DNA of 37,034 nt from a virus (taxonomy: Duplodnaviria > Caudoviricetes): IMG/VR virus record IMGVR_UViG_3300044670_000659, positions 1 through 37,034 of that record. One strand, given 5' to 3'. Made by a program: the position numbers and the translations under genes. The notes below the pieces were generated by a model. The model was given only the letters and a program-made list of their open reading frames with translations, did no database searches and had not been told where the DNA came from. This document shows positions 1-37,034 of the stretch, piece after piece (the stretch's first letter is position 1; each line of letters opens with the position of its first letter).

Positions 1-131
1 GCTATATTACAGAAAACTTATGTATATCAAATATGGTTTTTCTGAAAAATTTTAGGGAGGGGCCTTTTATGTATGTATGCGACCGGGCCATTTTTTTCTC
101 CCCCCATGCCGCGATCCCGAGCCGGGCCAGA

Positions 132-265
132 TTAGAATGATTCCAATGTGCAATCGCTGGAGGCAAAAGAACAAAACGTGAACATAGGCTGGGAGAACAA
201 AACGTGAACATAGGCTGGGAGAACAAAACGTGAACGCTTTTAGAATGATTCCAATGTGCAATCGC
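132..265 (+). repeat. 26-bp direct repeat TTAGAATGATTCCAATGTGCAATCGC x2 (132-157, 240-265) containing an Irr/ICE-like box
   Basis: Exact duplicate read from the sequence. 239-255 TTTAGAATGATTCCAAT matches the ICE consensus TTTRGAAYNRTTCYAAA at 16/17 positions. Confidence 0.85.
168..235 (+). repeat. Tandem 26-bp repeat AGAACAAAACGTGAACATAGGCTGGG x2.6, each unit carrying an alphaproteobacterial LexA (SOS) box
   Basis: Units at 168-193, 194-219 and partial 220-235. GAAC-AAAACGT-GAAC (GAAC-N7-GAAC) at 169-183, 195-209, 221-235. Confidence 0.85.
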
Positions 266-284
266 ATTGAGAATAGTTCGCAAC
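266..284. promoter_or_regulatory. Fur-family-like box
   Basis: ATTGAGAATAGTTCGCAAC: imperfect TTGAGAA-N3-TTCGCAA inverted repeat resembling Fur/Mur boxes; directly abuts the second ICE repeat. Confidence 0.4.
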
Positions 285-289
285 TAGTA

Positions 290-365
290 GGGTGCGACAC
301 TATGTCACATGTACACGGCAGATGATTTATGGCAGGGCGGGGTGCGACACTATGTCACATGTACA
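290..365 (+). repeat. 26-bp direct repeat GGGTGCGACACTATGTCACATGTACA x2 (290-315, 340-365) containing a RegA/RegR/PrrA-like box
   Basis: Exact duplicate. Core TGCGACA-CTA-TGTCACA; the reverse complement of its inner 15 bp, GTGACATAGTGTCGC, differs at one position from the RegR-box consensus GNGRCRTTNNGNCGC. Confidence 0.8.
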
Positions 366-393
366 TTCCCGGCCATATGTGATATGCGCGGCC

Positions 394-430
394 ATGCACT
401 AACCGCATAGCAGCCATGCAAACAATGCAC
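394..430. promoter_or_regulatory. Tandem LysR-type (T-N11-A) sites
   Basis: ATGC-N7-GCAT at 394-408 and ATGC-N7-GCAC at 416-430, 22 bp apart, the usual paired LTTR site geometry. Confidence 0.4.
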
Positions 431-517
431 TACTAATCCGCATTCAATGAGCATAAATTAATAATCACAAGGCGCGGCAATCCCGTCGGGCATTTAGAAG
501 CTAAATAGAGGTACATC

Positions 518-970
518 ATGACAACCACGACATACACACTCGAAGACGTTATTTCCGCAAACGTTGAAGACAGCAACGCGCGGGAATTGGCTGGATATCA
601 GCGCGAAAGCGCGGCGGCTGTAACACTCGCATTCATGCAACAAGCCGAAGCCGAAGGAAAAACGCCACATGAAGTTACGCTAGAGGCGGTGCGCAAATAC
701 GGCTGGAAATGCGGCGCAATTACAGACCCGATCACGGGTGCAAAAACTTCATATCCTGAAGGCATTGATATGCCAGTAAGCGTGAAACAGCGGTTCTCAA
801 CGTGCCGTAAAGCGTATGAACGCGGCGTAAAGTTTTCCGAGATTGAAACCTTCGGCGAATTGACGCCCAAAAAGGCGGACGACCCGACAATCAAGCTCCT
901 GACAAAGCATATCAAAGATATGACACCCGAGGCACGGGAAGAGTTGGCCAAGGCTTGGGGCCTTATTTAG
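518..970 (+). CDS. Hypothetical early protein (first gene of the + arm)
   Basis: 150-aa ORF with GAGGT RBS at 508-512. The stop codon TAG lies inside the 966-978 palindrome. Confidence 0.8.
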   Translation: MTTTTYTLEDVISANVEDSNARELAGYQRESAAAVTLAFMQQAEAEGKTPHEVTLEAVRKYGWKCGAITDPITGAKTSYPEGIDMPVSVKQRFSTCRKAYERGVKFSEIETFGELTPKKADDPTIKLLTKHIKDMTPEAREELAKAWGLI

Positions 971-978
971 AATCTAAA

Positions 979-1008
979 GCCGGGGATTAGCGCCAAATAG
1001 TCCCCGGC
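979..1008 (+). other. GC-rich stem-loop (11-bp stem, 8-nt loop) with no U-tract
   Basis: GCCGGGGATTA 979-989 pairs with TAGTCCCCGGC 998-1008 (one G-U pair). Confidence 0.6.
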
Positions 1009-1039
1009 ACATACCCCTGATTTATTGGAGTTTCTCAAC

Positions 1040-1285
1040 ATGCATCTCGAAATGCGCCATGATGGCCGGATTCTGCTTAAAAAACAGCTGGTCGCAACGC
1101 TATCGCCTGACAATGTATTGACGACAATTCGCGGCGATTCCGTGCAATGCAGCGGTATAACCGATGCCATGCGACAACTTGCCACATATCCCGTCGCGTC
1201 GTGGCTTGTCCCAGCGTCCCGATCATCAGCCCGTTGGCGCGTTGAGCGGCCCATCCATGCCCATAAATCGTGGTGCGATTGCTGA
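1040..1285 (+). CDS. Hypothetical protein
   Basis: GGAG at 1027-1030 then ATG 1040 (MHLEMRHDG...). Fills the gap between two palindromes. Confidence 0.6.
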   Translation: MHLEMRHDGRILLKKQLVATLSPDNVLTTIRGDSVQCSGITDAMRQLATYPVASWLVPASRSSARWRVERPIHAHKSWCDC

Positions 1286-1400
1286 CAATTTAGACTCTAA
1301 ACGAAAACGGATTCAATCATGCGGCTACCATCGTGGCCGTATGCTTGAGTGCGTCCCAAACCTAACCAAACTTTTAGACTCTAAACCAACGAGGTATGAC

Positions 1401-2213
1401 ATGATCCGCAGAAATAAAGCACCACTCCCCGGAATGACCGAGGCCGCAACTATCTGGCGCATTGATCCAGACAGTCCGCTCTATCACAAGCTACGTGTCG
1501 GTTCGGAAAACGAGCTTGGCAACCGACAGCCAGTAGCTAACAACGTCGCTGCTATTCAGAAATCATATGGCACGTTCTTTGGTCTCAAGTACAAGCCAAT
1601 CCTTTTAGACTCTAAATTGAACGTCATCGACGGACAGAACAGGTACGAGGCATGTCGCACAAATGACACGCCGCTGCCGCTCTACGTCCAGTTTCTTAAC
1701 GATGATATCGACCCGAAGGAACTGATGATCCTGTTCAACACAGGTCCAGTCTACAAGTGGAAGCTACAGGACTACATCAATTTTCACGCACAATTCGACA
1801 ATATGTATCTCAACTTCAAGGAATGTATGGCTGAGTATGCCGAGATCAAACCGACTGTCATGGTCAGTATCTTTCTAGGATCAACAGATCGTGAACGCAG
1901 CGAACGAATGTCCGGGTTTAAGGAAGGCAACCTGAAACAACTGATGGAACAACGGGGCATGACCTTGGCCCGTGTCTATCACGTACTGTCACAGGTCTAT
2001 CGTCTGCGCGGTGCACCTACCAATCCGATACTAACCAAGAAAACATTCTCGCTCGGTGCCTTCCAGTTTGCAGCACTACGTATCATCGACGATCCAGAGT
2101 TCGACTTCGATGCGTTCCTTGAGCGTGTCCGGGATGTGTCGCACATGCTGAACAGGTTCACCGATGCGGATGAACTGACACAGGAACTCTACGACATCGC
2201 CTATCGCAGGTAG
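1401..2213 (+). CDS. ParB/Srx-like N-terminal domain protein
   Basis: PILLD...VIDGQNRYEAC resembles the ParB-type PIxV...IIDGxHR motif. Start reassigned from 1164 to ATG 1401, which follows GAGGT at 1391-1395. Confidence 0.7.
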   Translation: MIRRNKAPLPGMTEAATIWRIDPDSPLYHKLRVGSENELGNRQPVANNVAAIQKSYGTFFGLKYKPILLDSKLNVIDGQNRYEACRTNDTPLPLYVQFLNDDIDPKELMILFNTGPVYKWKLQDYINFHAQFDNMYLNFKECMAEYAEIKPTVMVSIFLGSTDRERSERMSGFKEGNLKQLMEQRGMTLARVYHVLSQVYRLRGAPTNPILTKKTFSLGAFQFAALRIIDDPEFDFDAFLERVRDVSHMLNRFTDADELTQELYDIAYRR

Positions 2214-2291
2214 CTATGAGTCTGGTGCATACCAGCCAAGCAGAAATAGCAATCGACAGGTCAAACACTATCAAATAGAATGGTCAGTAAT

Positions 2292-2384
2292 ATGGAAATG
2301 GAAACCATACCAGCAGTCCTGATGATCGTCGGCAACACTGTCGGCTTCCTTATCGGAATGTGGATCATCCTCAGAAGTAAATAA
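2292..2384 (+). CDS. Small membrane protein (30 aa)
   Basis: MEMETIPAVLMIVGNTVGFLIGMWIILRSK: one hydrophobic span. The stop is immediately followed by the palindrome at 2385. Confidence 0.45.
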   Translation: MEMETIPAVLMIVGNTVGFLIGMWIILRSK

Positions 2385-2408
2385 TTTAGACTCTAAACGG
2401 AGGTAATC

Positions 2409-2555
2409 ATGAAAACCAACGCATCCGAACGACGTTTTCTGGAGTTTCAGAAACGTGCCAACCCAGACGTCCCGGAAAAACTATGGGACAGATACTGCAT
2501 CTACGTGTCGTGCGTAGATGACCCCGACACCTTTGCAGAATGGGTATCACGATGA
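2409..2555 (+). CDS. Hypothetical protein (48 aa)
   Basis: GGAGGT RBS at 2399-2404; MKTNASERRFLEFQKRANPD...; ATGA overlap with the next gene. Confidence 0.7.
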   Translation: MKTNASERRFLEFQKRANPDVPEKLWDRYCIYVSCVDDPDTFAEWVSR

Positions 2556-2812
2556 AAACACCACAGGTAAAACCCGACTGGGCAACAGGCATCTACATCG
2601 GCAACGGTGTAGTGGCAGAAGATATACGAACCAAGGTGGCTCGAATGACCGACGAAGAACTTACCAACGCCATGAACGATGTCCGGGAAACCATGCGACA
2701 TCACGTATTCGGCTCACCGTATCACAACAAATTGATGCGCGAGTACGACGAAATTCTGGAACAGATGAGCCAGAATTGTCTACGTGAATACGCCAAACGC
2801 CACGGAATTTAG
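2552..2812 (+). CDS. Hypothetical protein
   Basis: ATGA-coupled start (MKTPQVKPDW...). The stop TAG lies inside the 2808-2820 palindrome. Confidence 0.7.
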   Translation: MKTPQVKPDWATGIYIGNGVVAEDIRTKVARMTDEELTNAMNDVRETMRHHVFGSPYHNKLMREYDEILEQMSQNCLREYAKRHGI

Positions 2813-2831
2813 ACTCTAAACGGAGGTTACT

Positions 2832-3503
2832 ATGAAGAACGTATCGCCCACACACCCCGCCCTTGTCGAGGGCCGTGCCATCTATCAGAAGAACGTGTAC
2901 GACCCGGCAGACTATCCATTCGACATCATCAAACGATCCACCAATAAAAAGCTAGGCAAGAAGGTTACCAAGGGACGACATGCCGGACTGCCCATCTATA
3001 CCCTGACGCTGGAGGAACGGAAGACATGCACCGGAGACTGCGAACACTGGGACGATTGTTACGGGAACAACATGCCATTCGCCCACCGTTTCATGCACGG
3101 ACAGGCACTCGAAGACAGGATCAGGGAAGACCTTGACCGTCTCGACAGTAAACACAGGAGAGGATACCTTATCCGACTGCACATCCTTGGTGACTTCTAC
3201 AGTCCTGAGTACGTAGCCTTCTGGGCGGAACAGCTATCGACCCGACCGCGCCTGAGCATCTACGGGTACACCCGACACCATCCCGGCACACCCATCGGTG
3301 ACGCCGTGGCGGCTCTGGTATCAGACAGATTTGCCGTGCGGTTCTCGATGCTGCCCGACCATCCCTTCTCTGCTAATGGTGAGGACTATGCTGACCCGGA
3401 GACATCCATCACCTGCCCTGTCCAGACAGACAAGACAGATTCGTGCTCGACGTGCGGACTATGCTGGACGGTAAACAAACCAATCACATTCATCACACAC
3501 TGA
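2832..3503 (+). CDS. Gp88-like / radical-SAM-like Cys-rich protein
   Basis: Cx3Cx5C (CTGDCEHWDDCY), RLHILGDF motif, C-terminal CP...CSTCGLCW; GGAGGT RBS. Confidence 0.6.
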   Translation: MKNVSPTHPALVEGRAIYQKNVYDPADYPFDIIKRSTNKKLGKKVTKGRHAGLPIYTLTLEERKTCTGDCEHWDDCYGNNMPFAHRFMHGQALEDRIREDLDRLDSKHRRGYLIRLHILGDFYSPEYVAFWAEQLSTRPRLSIYGYTRHHPGTPIGDAVAALVSDRFAVRFSMLPDHPFSANGEDYADPETSITCPVQTDKTDSCSTCGLCWTVNKPITFITH

Positions 3504-3534
3504 GGCCCGAGAGGGCAAGACAGGAGAGACTACT

Positions 3535-3825
3535 ATGGGTTCTGAATCATTTGTTCACCAAGTCAAAGGTAAAAATGCACAAGAAGCATTTAACAACGCT
3601 CGTGAAGAGGCTGCATACGATCATGGTCACTCCGGTTATACCGGAACCATTGCAGAAAAGCACGGGTTTATAATTATTCCTAGACCAGACAACGGCCTTA
3701 ATGCAACCGCCGCCGCATGGGAAATGATAGATACTAATCCTAGTATTTCTGATAAATGGGGACCAGCCGGTTGCTTTGAGATCGGAGACGAAGACTTCTT
3801 ATTCTTTGGATTGGCAAGTTCATAA
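3535..3825 (+). CDS. Hypothetical phage protein
   Basis: 96-aa ORF with AGGAG upstream, in co-oriented gene run. Confidence 0.75.
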   Translation: MGSESFVHQVKGKNAQEAFNNAREEAAYDHGHSGYTGTIAEKHGFIIIPRPDNGLNATAAAWEMIDTNPSISDKWGPAGCFEIGDEDFLFFGLASS

Positions 3826-3851
3826 CAACAGATACAAAAGAGGAAAAGACA

Positions 3852-4115
3852 ATGCCACGCACACCATTCGGAAAGACACGCGAAGTCGAGAAGCCCTACG
3901 CAATCTATCGTCACGGAGATTGGGAATGGCGCGTCCTGAAGACGTACCAGCATCCCGACAAGGAGAAGACCAATCAGTATGCTCGATGGTTCGTAGCCGC
4001 CAAGTCACCCATGACATACGGCAGCTGGGAATACGGTGACACCTACGCATCAGAGATCAAGCAGTACGGACACCTGTCACTGGCCGACGAAGGATGGCTG
4101 GAGCATTACGGATGA
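3852..4115 (+). CDS. Hypothetical phage protein
   Basis: 87-aa ORF with GAGG RBS; Trp/Tyr-rich (WEWRVLKTYQ...ARWF...WEYGDTY). Confidence 0.75.
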   Translation: MPRTPFGKTREVEKPYAIYRHGDWEWRVLKTYQHPDKEKTNQYARWFVAAKSPMTYGSWEYGDTYASEIKQYGHLSLADEGWLEHYG

Positions 4116-4189
4116 TCTGGATAATCATGGGCATGGTGGTAATCATCACCTATCTGGCACTGGATCAACTGTTCAACATCTGGAGGTAA
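4112..4189 (+). CDS. Small membrane protein (25 aa)
   Basis: MIWIIMGMVVIITYLALDQLFNIWR; ATGA overlap upstream; its 3' end carries the GGAGGT RBS for the next gene. Confidence 0.5.
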   Translation: MIWIIMGMVVIITYLALDQLFNIWR

Positions 4190-4191
4190 TC

Positions 4192-4350
4192 ATGCCGGGA
4201 ATAAAGACAGACAAGAAACGAGCGACAAGGAGAAAGCCGAGGCGTAACCATTACGCGAAACTTTTAGAGTCTAAACAGAACAGGCCACAGGTGGTGACAC
4301 CCAAGCCACACCGTAAACCTAAACACAAACAAGAGGTATCAGATGAGTAA
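4192..4350 (+). CDS. Small basic protein
   Basis: MPGIKTDKKRATRRKPRRNHYAK...; GGAGGT at 4182-4187; contains the 4263-4275 palindrome. Confidence 0.65.
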   Translation: MPGIKTDKKRATRRKPRRNHYAKLLESKQNRPQVVTPKPHRKPKHKQEVSDE

Positions 4351-4621
4351 CAAGTATTTCTGGACCATCGACAAAGATCATATCGAAGGCACCGCAGACG
4401 GCCTGTCGTGCGGGTCAGGCGACAGACCTGAAAGGTCCCCCGACACAACTACCCCCGGAGAACAGTTCCGCATGTTCGACGACGACGGGGAACTGTACTA
4501 CTCCGGGTCCATCTGGGGTGACTACGACGGCTTCGAACCGCTCGACGATTTCGGTATGCCATCCGCCGGATGTACCGGTATTCAATACCAGAACGACAAA
4601 GGAGAATGGGAATGGCTGTGA
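4343..4621 (+). CDS. Acidic hypothetical phage protein
   Basis: 92-aa ORF with GAGGT RBS; FRMFDDDGELYYSG...FEPLDDFG. Confidence 0.75.
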   Translation: MSNKYFWTIDKDHIEGTADGLSCGSGDRPERSPDTTTPGEQFRMFDDDGELYYSGSIWGDYDGFEPLDDFGMPSAGCTGIQYQNDKGEWEWL

Positions 4622-4803
4622 AGACCCCGCAAAACTACGAAGATCGCTACGCCCACGCAACACACCGCGTCATGGAGTTGATGGCGCAGGGAAATACACC
4701 TGCCCATGCAGCCTACACGGCAGCGATGGATCACGGCCTAGGCCTTAACCAATACGGACGACTACTCCGTGAAACCAGAGAACGATATGAGGAGACAAAC
4801 TGA
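4618..4803 (+). CDS. Hypothetical protein
   Basis: GTGA overlap upstream and TGATG overlap downstream; start uncertain. Confidence 0.6.
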   Translation: MKTPQNYEDRYAHATHRVMELMAQGNTPAHAAYTAAMDHGLGLNQYGRLLRETRERYEETN

Positions 4804-5378
4804 TGTCGAATTTACCTAAGCACAAAGCTATCGTTGATTACTGGCAGACTCGTGTGTACGAGCAGGACCTTGGCACGGACTGGGACGAGGCCGAACATAG
4901 GTGTTGGCGCTGTGGGGTGAGACGATCCGGGAAAAAATCTAAATTAGAAAGATGTCACATCATCCCGGCATCTTTAGGCGGACCAGACACTGTTGAGAAT
5001 CTAGTTCTTCTCTGTACGCACTGCCATAAAGAAGCTCCAAACATAAATTCTAAAACCGTTATGTGGGACTGGATTAAAGCAACAAAAACAGAATTGTACG
5101 ACACGTTCTGGACACTACGAGCATTCGATGAAGTAGAAAAATTGTACGGCGTAAGCATGGAACAATTAGCAGAACAAACACTACAGCAGAAAGGACTTGG
5201 ACCTAGTCGGGGGACCAGTAAGTTCATGCGAGAACTGAAAGAAGTTTATGAAAATATTAGTGTCCATTTTGGAGAAGGTAAATACAACGCATCAACAGGT
5301 GCAGCAGCAATATATCAAGCATTCCAAAATATAAATGGCGAGGATGAAAACAATTATACTCAGGAGAAAAGAAAATGA
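4803..5378 (+). CDS. HNH endonuclease
   Basis: CWRC...CHIIPASLGG...NLVLLCTHCH, a classic Zn-binding HNH motif; GGAG RBS. Confidence 0.85.
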   Translation: MSNLPKHKAIVDYWQTRVYEQDLGTDWDEAEHRCWRCGVRRSGKKSKLERCHIIPASLGGPDTVENLVLLCTHCHKEAPNINSKTVMWDWIKATKTELYDTFWTLRAFDEVEKLYGVSMEQLAEQTLQQKGLGPSRGTSKFMRELKEVYENISVHFGEGKYNASTGAAAIYQAFQNINGEDENNYTQEKRK

Positions 5379-5599
5379 ATTGGGATTGGCACTGGATTAG
5401 TTGGTTTAGAGGAACTCCATTTCAATGGGGCGAATTTAAATTAAATAGTGGAAATCCTTATAAAAGTTATAGATTTGGACCATTACTTATTCGTGTGTTT
5501 CTGAGGGGGTCGAACGTGGTGAGGAGGCCGGAGGCACAGTCATCTACTGAGGCCCCGGAGGCGACGAAGTCGCAGGGGCATGTTGGTGGTGATGCCTGA
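5375..5599 (+). CDS. Hypothetical protein
   Basis: ATGA overlap with the HNH gene; aromatic-rich N-terminus. Confidence 0.55.
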   Translation: MNWDWHWISWFRGTPFQWGEFKLNSGNPYKSYRFGPLLIRVFLRGSNVVRRPEAQSSTEAPEATKSQGHVGGDA

Positions 5600-5864
5600 A
5601 CAGGACAGCCTCTATCACAAAGTGATTGACGATCTGTACGAGCAGGTCGTTGATCACGACCGACCACGTGGATCACAGTTCGACTACTGCGAGGACATAA
5701 CGGAGAAGTACATCGACAAGATGTCCGACATCGAAATGCAATACTGGTACGACACATACATCGCCCCCTTGCGGGGCCTTCACAAAGAGACACAGCACAA
5801 TGAAAGAAGAAAACGTCCGCTCCGAGATGGTTCAACTTGCCCAACGAATACGAGATGCAGGTGA
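5592..5864 (+). CDS. Acidic hypothetical protein
   Basis: MPEQDSLYHKVIDDLYEQ...; the 3' end overlaps the next ORF by about 65 bp, so it is uncertain. Confidence 0.5.
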   Translation: MPEQDSLYHKVIDDLYEQVVDHDRPRGSQFDYCEDITEKYIDKMSDIEMQYWYDTYIAPLRGLHKETQHNERRKRPLRDGSTCPTNTRCR

Positions 5865-6057
5865 CGAACTCCACGACCTAGCAGTAGAACTGGCCGACAA
5901 CATAGCCCGGACAGACCCGGACGATACCTATCTGGATTTCATCATGGCCGAACTGGAGAAGTCAGACGACAGCACAGACGTGGCTGCACACCTCGTAGCA
6001 TCTGGTGTCAGGGCCATCCTGATGTTCGATGCCGTCGACACCACGGTGGTGAACTGA
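5800..6057 (+). CDS. Acidic hypothetical protein
   Basis: 85-aa helical, acidic ORF lying between the two 28-bp repeats. Confidence 0.7.
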   Translation: MKEENVRSEMVQLAQRIRDAGDELHDLAVELADNIARTDPDDTYLDFIMAELEKSDDSTDVAAHLVASGVRAILMFDAVDTTVVN

Positions 6058-6060
6058 GGC

Positions 6061-6077
6061 TGCGACAACCTGTCACA
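6061..6077. promoter_or_regulatory. RegA/RegR-like box (TGCGACA-N3-TGTCACA)
   Basis: TGCGACAACCTGTCACA, intergenic, with the same arms as the leader copies. Confidence 0.5.
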
Positions 6078-6155
6078 GAGACATCAATTCAATGATCATT
6101 TAGACTCTAAACATCGCCCCCTTGCGGGGCCTTCACAACAGGAAGGGCAAAGACA

Positions 6156-6320
6156 ATGGAAGTATCAGTGCATCGAGTAACCGACATAAAGTTGAAGCGT
6201 ACTCAGTACGACAGCTTCAACACCGTAACCGTCACAGTCACCGACAAGCACGGTGATGAGACAGAATTTACATTGTTCAGTAACGAAGACAGTCACATCG
6301 AAATTGGAGAAGACAAGTGA
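6156..6320 (+). CDS. Hypothetical protein (54 aa)
   Basis: MEVSVHRVTDIKLKRTQYDSFNTVTVTVTD...; GTGA overlap with the next gene; below the ORF-track cutoff. Confidence 0.65.
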   Translation: MEVSVHRVTDIKLKRTQYDSFNTVTVTVTDKHGDETEFTLFSNEDSHIEIGEDK

Positions 6321-6589
6321 GCCGCTACAACCTGACACAACGAGTACCAGTAGACTACGTCACCATCAAGACAGCATCACAAATTACAGGGATGACAGCC
6401 AATGCAATCAGAGTTGCCGGATACGCCGGAAAGATCGACATGGTCCGAGCCGGAGCAGGAGGATGGCCCTCAGACCGACGACACCACAACGAGGTCTCAC
6501 TCCAATCGCTCTGGGATTACATCACAAACCGTGATCCCCGAGGCCGTCCGGGACTACGTGACATCCGTAGCAGGGGAGTCAGTAAGTAA
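6317..6589 (+). CDS. Helix-turn-helix DNA-binding protein (excisionase/MerR-like)
   Basis: YVTIKTASQITGMTANAIRVAGYAGKI fits an HTH_17-type pattern. Confidence 0.55.
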   Translation: MSRYNLTQRVPVDYVTIKTASQITGMTANAIRVAGYAGKIDMVRAGAGGWPSDRRHHNEVSLQSLWDYITNRDPRGRPGLRDIRSRGVSK

Positions 6590-6747
6590 TGACGACACAG
6601 AACAATTCATACACGACCTCGAAGAGTGGTACGACAAAGCTGATGTGTGATCAGTGTGAGACAGAAGTTGCAGTGGTCAAGGATTCAGGACTGTTGCTGT
6701 GTGCCACCTGCTCGAATCAGATGAGGCCACCGTGGAGGCGTTCCTGA
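6589..6747 (+). CDS. Small zinc-finger protein (52 aa)
   Basis: TAATG coupling; CDQC-x14-CATC. Confidence 0.55.
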   Translation: MTTQNNSYTTSKSGTTKLMCDQCETEVAVVKDSGLLLCATCSNQMRPPWRRS

Positions 6748-6919
6748 TAGTAGCTATCATAGTGATAGTCTTTCATGTCGCCGTCTTCCGATAGATAGAT
6801 TACCGACAACCATAAACATACGAGACAGTAGAGAAGAGGTAAGGAAACAATAGTAGAAATTACTGTTTGTCTCAAACCTGATACATAGATATGTACTCGC
6901 CGCGACGACCCCCTCACAA

Positions 6920-6936
6920 TAGGACAAATTGTCGCA
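6920..6936 (-). promoter_or_regulatory. RegA/RegR-like box, reverse orientation
   Basis: Reverse complement of 6920-6940 is GGGGTGCGACAATTTGTCCTA, sharing GGGTGCGACA with the leader repeats; intergenic. Confidence 0.45.
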
Positions 6937-7038
6937 CCCCTGAAACCCGCAGAAACCCGGCGTTTTTCACCGATGGTGTCGCCGGTTCTGCACCCCAGAT
7001 AGGGCCGATCTGGTACTATCGGGAACGAGGAAAAGAAA

Positions 7039-7263
7039 ATGCTAGTGAAATATGACTACAGCAAAGACGGAATTATCACATCAGAAGAAGCCCTGCGTCG
7101 GCTATGCAACTCTGATCTCATCGACTCATTACAGAGCATGTACGAGATGGATGGTGACATGTTGATCTCCACCTACAATACACTAATAGGCTGCATGTAC
7201 ACCTTGATGAGAATAAAGGAGTCCATTGACAATGGTGGTGAGGTAGTTGATAATGATGAGTAA
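7039..7263 (+). CDS. Hypothetical protein
   Basis: GAGG RBS; 74-aa ORF. Confidence 0.65.
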   Translation: MLVKYDYSKDGIITSEEALRRLCNSDLIDSLQSMYEMDGDMLISTYNTLIGCMYTLMRIKESIDNGGEVVDNDE

Positions 7264-7289
7264 CCACCAATCAATTACAGGATTTCACC

Positions 7290-7484
7290 ATGGCAAAGTG
7301 GAAACAGCTGAACGCATCGAGGGTCTTCCCGGATTTCAAACCGGTACGGAACCCTCGATGGCTCTGGAATCGTTACGGAAAGTTCTACGATCCCTTGGTC
7401 TGGGTGAAGGTAGACGGCAGGGTACACCACTCCGGTGCCTCCCAAGACACGTCCAGTCCGAAGGCCGGACTCTCCAGCCTGTAG
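7290..7484 (+). CDS. Hypothetical protein
   Basis: AGGA RBS; 64-aa ORF. Confidence 0.5.
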   Translation: MAKWKQLNASRVFPDFKPVRNPRWLWNRYGKFYDPLVWVKVDGRVHHSGASQDTSSPKAGLSSL

Positions 7485-7711
7485 CTGTCCTTAGTAAATG
7501 TGACCGTTCCGAAGAGCGTCTGTAGCACGAGCGGTTCCATATCGGATTACTCCCCTTTTAATCTTTGTCCACAAGTTGGAGCCACCACGGTGACCCCCGA
7601 CATTGAAAACATCAAACACGAGTGTGGCAGTACTGAATGTCATGGCGGTTCTCCTGCCCCAGAATGGGGCCTCCCCTGAATATAATTGCTGCACTGCACA
7701 ATGACAAGACC

Positions 7712-7804
7712 ATGCCAGAAATCATAGCCATTCCACTTGCAGTTGTACTACTCGTCGGCGCGATTGCATTCACATTAATCTTCTTCAGAGGCAACGATGA
7801 GTGA
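7712..7804 (+). CDS. Small membrane protein (30 aa)
   Basis: MPEIIAIPLAVVLLVGAIAFTLIFFRGNDE; overlaps the primase start. Confidence 0.45.
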   Translation: MPEIIAIPLAVVLLVGAIAFTLIFFRGNDE

Positions 7805-9476
7805 TTCAGAACCAGTCAAGACACACATACCGTGCCACCTATGCGGATCGTCCGACGCAGGTGCACTCTACACAGACGGACACTTCCATTGTTTCAGCTG
7901 TCGTCAGACTGAACACGCATACGACGGCGAACACGCACACGAGGTAGTAACTCACATGAAACCAACACATCAGAAACCACGTCTCGTCCACGACTCCTCG
8001 CGTCTGGATGAGATGCTGAACGGCCTGACCTGCGGCGTCCTTGCAGACCGCAAGATTTCGGCAGCAGTTGTCGAGAAGTTCGGGGTCCGCGTCGACAACG
8101 TGAACGACCGACACCTCTACCCGTATCGTAACGCGGACGGTGACCTGACAGGGGTGAAGACACGGTACTCCAGAAACAAGACGTTCTCATGGGACGGTAA
8201 CGGACAGACAGCCCTGTTCGGGATGCACCTGTTCCCCGGCGGTGGTAAGACAATCACCATCTGCGAGGGCGAGATCGACACGATGGCCGCACACCAGATG
8301 AATGGGTCCAAGTGGCCCACCGTCGGGATGCCGTCAGCCACCGGGGTCAAGGCTATCAAGGAGAACCTCGAATACCTGAACACGTTCGAGGAAATCTATC
8401 TGGCCTTCGACAATGACGATGCAGGTAAACGTGCCACCGAGGACGTTGCCAATTTGTTCGAGCCTAACAAGTGCAAGGTAGTCAACCTCGCCCCACTGAA
8501 GGATGTCGGTGAGTATCTGGCCGAGGGTAAGGTCGAGGACTACACCCGACGTTGGTGGAACGCACAGCCCTTCACCCCGGAGGGTATCGTCCGAGGCTCG
8601 TCACTCTGGGACTTGGTCTCCACCGACGACGACACCCCTTCCGTACCGTATCCGTACGATGGACTACAGGAGATGACCTACGGCATCCGTGTCGGTGAAC
8701 TGGTCACGCTCACAGCCGGGTCAGGACTGGGCAAGTCAGCCGTCGTCCGCGAACTGATGTACCACCTTCTCAACGTGACCGAGGACAACATCGGCTGCTT
8801 GTTCCTTGAGGAATCCACCAAGCGGTCAGCCCTTGGCTTCATGTCGATGGCTGCGAACAAGCCGCTCCACCTGCCCGACACTGAGAAGACACCGGAGGAA
8901 CTACGACTGGCCTTCGAGCAGACACTCGACACCGACCGCATCTTCTTCTACGACAGCTTCGGGTCGAACTCGCTGGACAATATCATCGGCAGGGTCCGTC
9001 ACATGGCGAAGGCTATGGACTGCAAGTACATCGTCCTCGACCACCTGTCCATCGTTGTCTCCAGTCAGGAGAATGGTGATGAACGTAAGGCCATCGACGA
9101 GATTGTGACGCGGCTGCGTATGCTGATTCAGGAACTACGTATCAGTCTCATCATGGTGTCGCACCTCCGCCGACCGCAGGGTCAGGGCCACGAGGATGGT
9201 GCAGCTACTAGCCTGTCGCAGCTTCGAGGCTCTGCTGCCATCGCCCAGCTATCAGACATGGTCATCGGACTGGAGCGTAACGGTCAGGCTGAGAACGAGG
9301 TGATGCGGAACACAACGACAGTCCGTGTCCTGAAGAACCGGTTCTCCGGTATCACCGGTCCTGCCACCTACCTGTACTACGACAAGACAACAGGTCGCTT
9401 GACAGAGGTCGGCGAACCGGGACAGGATGACACACCCGTATTCGATAACAGCCCACTGGCAGACTTCACATCATGA
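7797..9476 (+). CDS. T7 gp4-like DNA primase-helicase
   Basis: N-terminal Zn finger (CHLC...CFSC), Toprim (CEGEID, FDND), Walker A AGSGLGKS, LDHLS, QLRGS, KNRFSG. Confidence 0.95.
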   Translation: MSDSEPVKTHIPCHLCGSSDAGALYTDGHFHCFSCRQTEHAYDGEHAHEVVTHMKPTHQKPRLVHDSSRLDEMLNGLTCGVLADRKISAAVVEKFGVRVDNVNDRHLYPYRNADGDLTGVKTRYSRNKTFSWDGNGQTALFGMHLFPGGGKTITICEGEIDTMAAHQMNGSKWPTVGMPSATGVKAIKENLEYLNTFEEIYLAFDNDDAGKRATEDVANLFEPNKCKVVNLAPLKDVGEYLAEGKVEDYTRRWWNAQPFTPEGIVRGSSLWDLVSTDDDTPSVPYPYDGLQEMTYGIRVGELVTLTAGSGLGKSAVVRELMYHLLNVTEDNIGCLFLEESTKRSALGFMSMAANKPLHLPDTEKTPEELRLAFEQTLDTDRIFFYDSFGSNSLDNIIGRVRHMAKAMDCKYIVLDHLSIVVSSQENGDERKAIDEIVTRLRMLIQELRISLIMVSHLRRPQGQGHEDGAATSLSQLRGSAAIAQLSDMVIGLERNGQAENEVMRNTTTVRVLKNRFSGITGPATYLYYDKTTGRLTEVGEPGQDDTPVFDNSPLADFTS

Positions 9477-36329: not shown

Positions 36330-37034
36330 CTAGTTTGTCCAAGTGTTTCCGGAACTGGCAGTTACCGGAATCCATGAGTCTAGTGCCCCTGTTGATACCG
36401 TCGTCCATACATCATCAGGTCCGACAGGGACGACAATCCAGACAGGGTACTGTCCGAGTACTATATCAACAGATTGCCCAGTTGGAAACACGTTTGCCGT
36501 ACCGGTAATTGTCATAGTACCGTACTCGGTAGACAGGCTCTGTCCTGTTACAGCGGCAGTAGCATCTGCTGCAACCGTTGGTGTGCCCTCAACAATATCA
36601 ACTGACTGACCAGTTAAAGTGGTAAACGCTTCCCCAGAAATAACAATAGTTCCAGTATCAGCATCAACAGACTCCCCTGTCAGCGTAACTACAACTGACT
36701 GAAGAATTTGTACTGTTCCTTCATCGATGTCGAGAGACTGTCCCGTTAAAGGAACAGACGTATTTATAGCAACCGTTGGTGTGCCTTCAACAATATCAAC
36801 TGACTGACCAGTTAAAGTGGTAAACGCTTCCCCAGAAATAACAATAGTTCCAGTATCAGCATCAACAGATTGTCCGGTAAGAGTAACCGTATGATGTATG
36901 ACAATTAAAACTGTACCTTCATCAATGTCGAGAGACTGTCCGGTAAGAGGAACTACAGCTTCAGTAGTAACCGTAACTGTACCTTCATCGATGTCGAGAG
37001 ATTGTCCGGTAAGAGAAACATCTGCTGAAATATC
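36330..37034 (-). CDS. Partial repeat-rich structural (fibre-like) protein, 5'-truncated by the window edge
   Basis: Frame is open from 37034 to the stop at 36330; nine 22-aa repeats with a TG[QE]S core (e.g. LTGQSLDIDEGTV). Confidence 0.75.
   Translation of the reverse strand, partial: DISADVSLTGQSLDIDEGTVTVTTEAVVPLTGQSLDIDEGTVLIVIHHTVTLTGQSVDADTGTIVISGEAFTTLTGQSVDIVEGTPTVAINTSVPLTGQSLDIDEGTVQILQSVVVTLTGESVDADTGTIVISGEAFTTLTGQSVDIVEGTPTVAADATAAVTGQSLSTEYGTMTITGTANVFPTGQSVDIVLGQYPVWIVVPVGPDDVWTTVSTGALDSWIPVTASSGNTWTN
36571..36869. repeat. 101-bp direct repeat (36571-36671, 36769-36869), 1 mismatch, offset 198 bp
   Basis: Read directly; the offset equals three 66-bp repeat units. Confidence 0.85.

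Follow-up and report, generated by a model that had tools for sequence, protein, structure and literature searches.

Genome context of the leader

The stretch of DNA analyzed here, called the window below (37,034 nucleotides at its full length), is an IMG/VR record of linear form whose completeness is given as 64%; the phage belongs to a clade of uncultured podoviruses. Its genes include those for a primase-helicase, a family A polymerase, ThyX, and a class II-type ribonucleotide reductase. A structural protein, together with the terminase of a close relative, is nearest to proteins of DSL-LC04, HTVC023P, 023Pt_psg01, and CRP-901, with 30 to 41% identity, and the 11 sequencing runs that held at least half of the first 3 kb are all estuary or seawater metagenomes. 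The initial annotation had stated that RNA polymerase, repressor, and integrase are all missing from the window. Neither an RNA polymerase nor an integrase was found among the 52 open reading frames (ORFs) scanned, but "no repressor" was too strong, because the window contains a Cox/HTH_17-like gene (6317 to 6589) and a phage-specific 13-bp palindrome. The product of the first early gene had no match in Pfam, PHROG, or NCBIfam and fell only within unnamed viral clusters. The features are collected in Table 1.

Table 1. Features of the leader and the adjoining early region, with positions in the window
Feature	Position	Strand	Basis or remark
Terminase-side block (T/A tract, AT-alternating run, C tract)	37-106		Conserved in the clade
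Predicted Irr iron-control element (ICE), copy 1, within repeat A	131-147		15 of 17 consensus positions
Predicted LexA box 1, GAAC-N7-GAAC	169-183	+	Its 17-mer precedes PHP-domain genes in 15 bacterial loci
Predicted LexA box 2, tandem 26-bp unit	195-209	+	Repeat, pattern match, and depth in run X1
Predicted LexA box 3	221-235	+	Repeat and pattern match
Predicted Irr iron-control element, copy 2	239-255		16 of 17 consensus positions
Predicted Fur-alpha-type (or Mur-type) box	266-284		Like sites in Table S6 of PMC1698941
Predicted RegA/PrrA/RegR-type box 1, within repeat C	293-309		Pattern match; published ChIP sites
Predicted RegA/PrrA/RegR-type box 2	343-359		Repeat C copy; pattern match
Four-tetramer site, ATGC-N7-GCAT-N7-ATGC-N7-GCAC	394-430	+	Candidate host activator site, LysR-type or NtrX
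Candidate early promoter: -10-like hexamer (454-459), no clear -35; word AAGGCGCGGCAATC (469-482)	454-482	+	Conservation
Palindrome TTTAGANTCTAAA, first of ten	493-505		Others at 966, 1289, 1373, 1604, 2385, 2808, 4263, 6099, and 10349
First early gene, no assigned function	518-970	+	Other genes in its place in relatives
ParB-like protein	1401-2213	+	phrog_12305, E value of 4.6e-11
Cox/HTH_17-like small DNA-binding protein	6317-6589	+	ESM Atlas feature score of 0.94 to Phage_Cox clusters

The leader is a noncoding divergent gap, which in the ORF1 relative L002 separates terS-terL from the first early gene. The conserved block on its terminase side was recovered from each of the 50 relative loci examined when as many as three differences were tolerated, and it resembles the opening bases of the terminal repeat of ICBM1, which has been mapped by PacBio sequencing (PMC6775973). 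Because of this resemblance, the array described below is likely to be located just inside the left genome end, the physical end itself probably being near positions 37 to 106; terminal-repeat status is assigned by analogy with ICBM1 only. The contig ends of relatives scatter and share no common end. A structured noncoding RNA was considered and found to be unsupported, as Rfam gave no match in positions 1 to 8000 and the folding of the plus strand from 107 to 517 was not beyond chance (z = 0.27). Elsewhere in the window, an exact 28-bp repeat with a hairpin-like core lies between early genes (5758 to 5785 and 6111 to 6138), and 66-bp coding repeats are found in a cut-off tail-region gene at the right end (36465 to 37026).

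The palindrome TTTAGANTCTAAA occurs 10 times in the window, versus 0.06 copies expected, and several copies lie directly 5' of the ribosome-binding sites of early genes. A host operator was rejected for this word, since it is not enriched in 151 alphaproteobacterial genomes (38 matches versus 30 for the control, with a maximum of 3 per genome). Six of the 35 relatives share it, four of these also having the small ORF at 1040 to 1285, and it is likely the operator of a phage protein. The Cox-like protein, whose sequence gave no Pfam or NCBIfam match, is a candidate binder; its gene sits downstream of a RegA-type site (6061) and of the palindrome copy at 6099.

Layout of the leader array

Between positions 131 and 430 (300 bp), nine sites together occupy 169 bp; they are separated by gaps of 3 to 34 bp and bridge the distance between the end-like block and the likely promoter. 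Neighboring LexA, Irr, and Fur boxes are 3 to 11 bp apart, and 8 bp separate them from the first RegA box. The initial annotation had described three exact repeats and two single elements, and all of these were recovered at the same coordinates when rechecked on the sequence: repeat A at 132 to 157 and 240 to 265, repeat B at 168 to 193 and 194 to 219 with a partial copy at 220 to 235, repeat C at 290 to 315 and 340 to 365, and the single elements at 266 to 284 and 394 to 430. When bases 1 to 520 were shuffled 500 times, the longest exact repeat was 12 nucleotides. The length of 26 bp given for each repeat is correct for the window and is partly coincidence, as lengths and periods differ among relatives: repeats A and C are 23 and 19 bp long in L002, and the tandem periods include 22, 26, 29, 32, and 34 to 41 bp. 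A designed unit of 26 bp was ruled out on these grounds. An assembly artefact was likewise ruled out, because two other assemblies, L170 and L171, both begin with an ICE and three LexA units as in the window and because the contig over 168 to 209 in run X1 (perhaps the source sample) has a depth of 85, about twice that of single-copy contigs (35 to 49).

Scanning with consensus patterns that allow fixed mismatches, used in place of weight matrices, revealed that the motifs are concentrated in the leader relative to the rest of the window. GAAC-N7-GAAC, on either strand, occurs three times in the leader and not at all in the remaining 36.5 kb; both window matches to the tight ICE pattern, two of the four to the tight RegA-type pattern, and one of the two to the Fur-type pattern are in the leader.

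Assignment of the words to host regulators

Five regulator labels had been proposed for these elements. The Irr, Fur-family, LexA, and RegA-type assignments hold, because the same words adjoin the expected genes in alphaproteobacterial genomes; they are also backed by published consensus sequences or sites and by the recurrence of the cores in relatives. The fifth label, LysR, was not established.

The consensus of the Irr iron-control element is TTTRGAAYNRTTCYAAA (PMC1698941; Table S3). The exact ICE core was found in three of five genomes, in each case adjoining rubrerythrin/MbfA-type genes, and by count it does not exceed the reversed control (3 versus 8). The element at 266 to 284 is a 19-bp palindrome resembling the Fur-alpha sites listed in the same paper. 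Thirteen of the 14 host loci with this word were examined. Four of these precede fur, genes for two solute-binding proteins, or one for an ABC permease, and the remaining examined loci lie before unrelated genes or have no called ORF. A Fur box and a Mur box are not separable from sequence.

The alphaproteobacterial LexA motif is the direct repeat GTTC-N7-GTTC/GAAC-N7-GAAC (PMC8565304, PMC7987155). The exact 17-mer of the window was found at 103 loci in GTDB, 59 of them alphaproteobacterial by record title. Among the 52 alphaproteobacterial loci with a scanned ORF, 15 precede a PHP domain and 1 an S24 peptidase, while none of the other scanned loci, which are non-alphaproteobacterial, precedes a PHP domain. 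We take these PHP-domain genes to be DnaE-like, with a link to the SOS response, and four more neighboring genes to be ImuA-like. The RegA-type boxes fit a published list of ChIP sites (PMC5359404), being GC-rich inverted repeats of the GCGAC-N5-GTCGC type, and are nearer to a perfect palindrome than most of the sites from R. capsulatus. In bacterial genomes, 8 of 17 loci with the RegA-type pattern adjoin COX2 or fall between a Rieske gene and hemF, which places them by cytochrome oxidase or bc1 genes, and the single match in Sneathiella also adjoins a gene of this kind.

The four-tetramer pattern was found at 14 sites in 201 alphaproteobacterial genomes, versus 2 control matches; this count was made with a broader pattern than an earlier, over-specified one, which was found in 2 of 151 genomes. 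None of the 23 ORFs neighboring the host copies matches a LysR model, and glnA, chpT, and a dehydrogenase are among these neighbors. With tetramers spaced by N7 and a fixed distance to the likely promoter, 394 to 430 would presumably correspond to LysR-type T-N11-A dyads at -65 and -35. The motif proposed for NtrX is GCAn9TGC (PMC7240162); the center of the site matches it, at six bases only, and the host copies examined are not at dcw genes. The site is likely that of a host activator, either LysR-type or NtrX. Taken over all of these predicted, operator-like sites, binding by host proteins is very probable.

From operator words that match Irr, Fur, LexA, and RegA sites and their target genes, the host is likely to be a member of the Alphaproteobacteria that possesses Irr as well as a regulator of the Fur family. 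No relative of the small terminase subunit (TerS) was found in GTDB genomes. The 1.7-Mb genome G072 contains five four-tetramer sites and was not accepted as the host, since ICE, Fur, and LexA matches are missing with the patterns used. The central spacers of its sites (L590 and L596 to L600) resemble those of the phage clade, and this genome may hold the regulator of the motif. In G003 and G004 an ICE adjoins a Fur-family gene and the LexA word is present, which indicates host compatibility only.

Leaders of related phages

A search with TerS yielded 17 viral and 41 metagenome loci, of which 50 of 58 were used (8 had too little upstream DNA); after the merging of 13 near-duplicates and the removal of 2 that were too short, 35 leaders and that of the window were compared. 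A further 80 loci found with the large terminase subunit (TerL) added no leader beyond this set. As the initial annotation had expected of related phages, the cores recur among the 35 relatives while flanks, order, and copy number vary. In the first 500 bp of the 36 leaders, there were 57 ICE-type matches in 27 leaders (shuffled mean, 0.75), 40 LexA matches in 21 (shuffled, 0.5), 38 Fur-type matches in 22 (2.0), 24 RegA-type matches in 17 (0), and 7 matches to ATGC-N7-GCAT in 6 (0.7); these counts are not independent, because the leaders are related, and include double counting where the loose ICE and Fur patterns overlap. In six of the 36, this 500-bp stretch is free of all of these boxes. 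A pattern-free test on 16 leader clusters placed the top shared 9-mers in the LexA (10), ICE (9), and RegA (7) cores, with 139 9-mers present in at least 4 of the 16 clusters versus 0 to 2 in the 10 shuffles shown.

When the boxes are written as letters (I, ICE; F, Fur; X, LexA; R, RegA; L, four-tetramer site), strings such as IFFFFXIX, IXXXIRR, XRIIRL, and FFR are scattered over the TerS tree (29 of 35 rows). Tandem amplification differs by lineage, with Fur boxes amplified fourfold in L197 and LexA boxes threefold, and units of 26, 32, and 29 to 41 bp to which no regulator could be assigned are amplified up to seven times. RegA lies upstream of an ICE in several leaders, L081, L201, and L202 among them, and the LexA spacer is nearly invariant within the clade. 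In the L068 lineage an extra gene cassette splits the leader, and LexA, RegA, and the four-tetramer site stay with the second promoter; a second array, with three to five LexA boxes in both orientations and a RegA box, is found there 1.4 to 1.9 kb inside and runs from a terminator to the next promoter-like place.

Several other features of these leaders were recorded. Those of L071, L072, and L204 contain none of the boxes and carry repeated GTTTAAAC and TTTTTACAAAGT, possibly sites for the regulators of another host. L081 has a 26-bp tandem unit containing GAGTC (CcrM/GcrA-like) at 104 to 217 from the anchor, L195 and L207 have a 32-bp unit in up to seven copies at 109 to 329 from the anchor, and the second arrays of L068, L178, L205, and L075 include three to five copies of a CAGAGTAGTGACC unit. 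A TTGACATTGTGAAT-like word stands directly after the first promoter-like site in L068, L069, L073, L075, L431, and ICBM1, and presumably resembles the boxA antiterminator of rRNA operons. Noncoding leaders of 1.1 to 1.3 kb, a length that depends on the ORF-calling rule used, with GC-rich hairpin-like stretches past the array, were seen in L187, L201, L202, L206, L208, L077, L081, and L180.

The candidate early promoter and two tiers of sites

The word AAGGCGCGGCAATC is likely to be the 5' region of the early transcript, as judged from its conservation across relatives. A sigma-70 scan gave no site in positions 1 to 520, which fits an activator-dependent promoter without proving one. A sigma-54 reading of the TGGCAG word was rejected, the spacing being one base off by eye. 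Sixteen promoter-like places were compared with this conserved word as the reference, six further matches to which, inside genes or without context, were left out; the word and the patterns were picked after looking at the data. In 14 of the 16 the four-tetramer site ends 35 to 38 bp before this word; the places come from two lineages with otherwise different leaders, and the other 2 have a different cassette. Measured from the same word, the nearest RegA box is at -108 to -146, LexA boxes at -163 to -492, ICEs at -196 to -330, and Fur boxes at -185 to -308. The order in these places is Irr/Fur/LexA, RegA, four-tetramer site, promoter, with the Irr, Fur, and LexA boxes variable in spacing and present in both orientations. 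Because the four-tetramer distance is constant while the ICE, Fur, and LexA distances vary, the array is two-tiered, with a fixed proximal tier and a freely expanding distal tier.

LexA clusters in other viruses

The LexA 16-mer was found at 124 viral loci in about one third of the collection searched, 111 of them distinct. A further LexA box lies within 300 bp at 50 of these 111, versus 5 of 102 bacterial loci found with nearly the same seed word; the corresponding figures are 2 of 50 for RegA-seeded and 2 of 53 for ICE-seeded viral loci. The viral clusters contain up to nine matches (L462), and their spacers are free while the arms hold. Several adjoin terminase genes of 31 to 65% identity, and some also carry ICE, Fur, RegA, or parS-like words. 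Dense noncoding clusters, often with an 11-bp period, were noted in L462, L436, L445, L485, L479, L473, L384, and L389. Searching with the RegA 17-mer gave 63 viral loci, and in many of them the 17-mer is immediately followed by TTGACA. The ICE-seeded viral loci were rejected as arrays, being mostly chance matches with a second motif in 8 of 53. Palindromes that we class as parS-like stand by LexA or RegA-type boxes in phage leaders, in L420, L427, L461, and L398 (4 of the 111 LexA-seeded loci have such words) and in 6 of 50 RegA-seeded loci.

BLAST searches of leader pieces against cultured phages gave weak or no matches. The exact-box array was not found in five long records or parts of records (ICBM1, HTVC103P, CRP-804, HMO-2011, and CRP-810) or in seven shorter regions from CRP-901 (twice), HTVC023P, HTVC027P, DSL-LC04, MinM2, and 023Pt_psg01. 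In HTVC103P (L498, 3540 to 3660) an AT run and a C tract before terS are followed by ICE-like words, seen by eye and below threshold.

Possible functions of the array

We consider it possible, if somewhat short of probable, that the leader array is a host-state gate on early transcription that acts through bound host proteins. Lacking a good -35 element, the promoter would receive host RNA polymerase through the four-tetramer site and the nearest RegA box, and the distal LexA, Irr, and Fur boxes would damp this promoter by crowding out the activators or looping to them, not by covering the promoter itself. Lineages would tune the response to their hosts through the number of boxes, and infection would enter the lytic cycle late or in a graded manner, as proposed for the CtrA-site phages discussed below. 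The ParB-like gene would fit a waiting state that is not integrated.

The fixed proximal geometry in 14 of 16 places and the order from distal boxes through RegA and the four-tetramer site to the promoter argue for a gate, as do the boxes that travel with the second promoter in the L068 lineage (three to five LexA, RegA, four-tetramer), the lack of an RNA polymerase among the scanned ORFs, and the host-side gene context of the words; this promoter, however, is itself predicted, with a word and patterns chosen post hoc. The distal tier fits a gate less well. Its LexA, ICE, and Fur boxes are too distant for ordinary repression, the LexA copy number is far over host practice (nearly half of viral loci clustered, against 5 of 102 bacterial ones, with nine boxes in L462), RegA lies upstream of an ICE in L081, L201, and L202, and 6 of the 36 leaders lack all of the boxes in their first 500 bp. 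Irr and Fur, moreover, answer to opposite iron states. The distance, free expansion, and opposed iron logic of these boxes favor occupancy of the DNA as such, in one of two forms. In the first, which we regard as rather doubtful, tight-binding host proteins would hold or shield the first-entering end until the early promoter has entered and host RNA polymerase can pull, and boxes for regulators that are bound in different states would keep the DNA covered in any cell. The coverage of 169 of 300 bp with gaps of at most 34 bp between end-like block and promoter points this way, as do the tandem amplification of unrelated units of 22 to 41 bp across lineages, including words with no known owner, the second tiled array from terminator to next promoter in the L068 lineage, and the likeness of the terminase-side block to the mapped repeat start of ICBM1, whose own leader, on the other side, has no such exact-box array. 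Of 80 LexA-seeded loci, 10 are no more than 250 bp from the end of their contig, versus 4.2 expected, an excess that is also explained by assembly breaks, because repeats break assemblies. A role for host-protein boxes in injection has been proposed for T5, as a hypothesis only (bioRxiv 10.1101/866236). The constant proximal distance is left unexplained by such holding alone. Nonspecific nucleoid proteins could do the same job. Extended to many marine phages, this reading would mean an expandable strip of borrowed operators at the first-entering end, whose bound regulators grip or shield the DNA until host RNA polymerase takes over, and it seems to us similarly doubtful in that wider form.

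The other form of occupancy, which we hold to be unlikely, is that of a sponge: replicating genomes, with their many near-consensus boxes, would titrate LexA, Fur, and Irr and so open SOS and iron genes, and only the sites of the proximal tier would act on the promoter. The distal position of the boxes and their repeated, independent amplification would suit titration, as would RegA-type sites that come nearer to a perfect palindrome than most in R. capsulatus, but titrating the activator RegA offers no clear benefit, and a sponge needs neither a location at the genome head nor an order relative to the promoter. Autoregulated repressors buffer titration, and the leaders of L071, L072, and L204 do without these boxes. 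It is less likely still, finally, that the words are sites for phage proteins of packaging or replication, or scraps of host promoters multiplied by slippage whose binding is not under selection. The region does adjoin the terminase genes, a Cox-like protein and a phage-specific palindrome are present, and the nearly invariant LexA spacer within the clade means that descent accounts for part of the conservation. The cores nevertheless persist across the TerS tree while flanks and order change, LexA arms hold in unrelated phages while spacers vary freely, and four distinct words are each associated with the corresponding host target genes, whereas TTTAGANTCTAAA behaves otherwise, being spread before early genes and unenriched in hosts.

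Known systems and implications

The initial annotation knew of no described system like this one. That statement has to be narrowed, since related clusters of CtrA sites have been described (PMC9437464). The literature searched, with most subscription journals outside its scope, yielded no phage leader with an array for several regulators, a decoy, or an entry ratchet. According to PMC9437464, the LPEG alphaproteobacterial phages (phiCbk, vB_BsubS-Delta, and Cp1R7A-A1) have CtrA sites clustered in terminal repeats, with turnover of sites between relatives, measured regulation including EMSA and reporter data, and a proposed deferment of lysis, and they thus provide a precedent for a gate. The phage studied here resembles them in its many high-scoring host-regulator sites, in the position of these in a noncoding gap (terminal by analogy with ICBM1 only), in their turnover, and in its likely alphaproteobacterial host; it differs in that four to five regulators, at predicted sites, take the place of one and that whole cassettes are swapped and amplified in the clade. 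It would work like the LPEG phages and is no member of them, because no CtrA site (TTAA-N7-TTAA) was found in the window.

In the LexA-controlled temperate phages GIL01, CTX, and SPC32H, the boxes lie in lytic or antirepressor promoters (summarized in PMC9437464). Host SOS boxes within phage control DNA are common to these and to our clade, in which, by contrast, the boxes lie at a large distance upstream of the likely promoter, reach as many as nine, and are intermingled with iron and redox boxes, and no integrase was found in the 52 ORFs of the 64% complete record. The lytic Bacillus phage phi29 combines Spo0A boxes with Spo0J capture (summarized in PMC9437464), so that, as proposed here, more than one host DNA-binding protein adjusts the cycle; in phi29 this concerns one pathway, sporulation, instead of several independent stress and metabolic inputs. 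In the T5 injection-stop region, DnaA boxes in noncoding terminal DNA have been given a proposed role in entry (bioRxiv 10.1101/866236). Host-protein boxes in noncoding terminal DNA, terminal by analogy in our case, are the shared element; the T5 model involves a single protein, boxes at rigid spacing, and a stop function, where the present arrays are variable and mixed, and both models are hypotheses.

Host control of phage genes has mostly been described one regulator at a time, as for LexA, CtrA, and Spo0A. Here a single 300-bp stretch joins inputs for DNA damage, two for iron, one for redox, and one further input, and the clade edits the cassettes. The set of boxes gives an indication of the class to which the host of an uncultured phage belongs, and if the array serves as an entry strip it would be a readable record of the regulators of the host, usable for host assignment. 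If gripping, shielding, or titration is its function, this would be a use of noncoding DNA that was not found described in the literature searched. If instead the array is a gate, the timing of lysis by marine phages that seem to be lytic would follow iron, oxygen, and DNA damage, with a bearing on the cycling of iron and carbon in the ocean.
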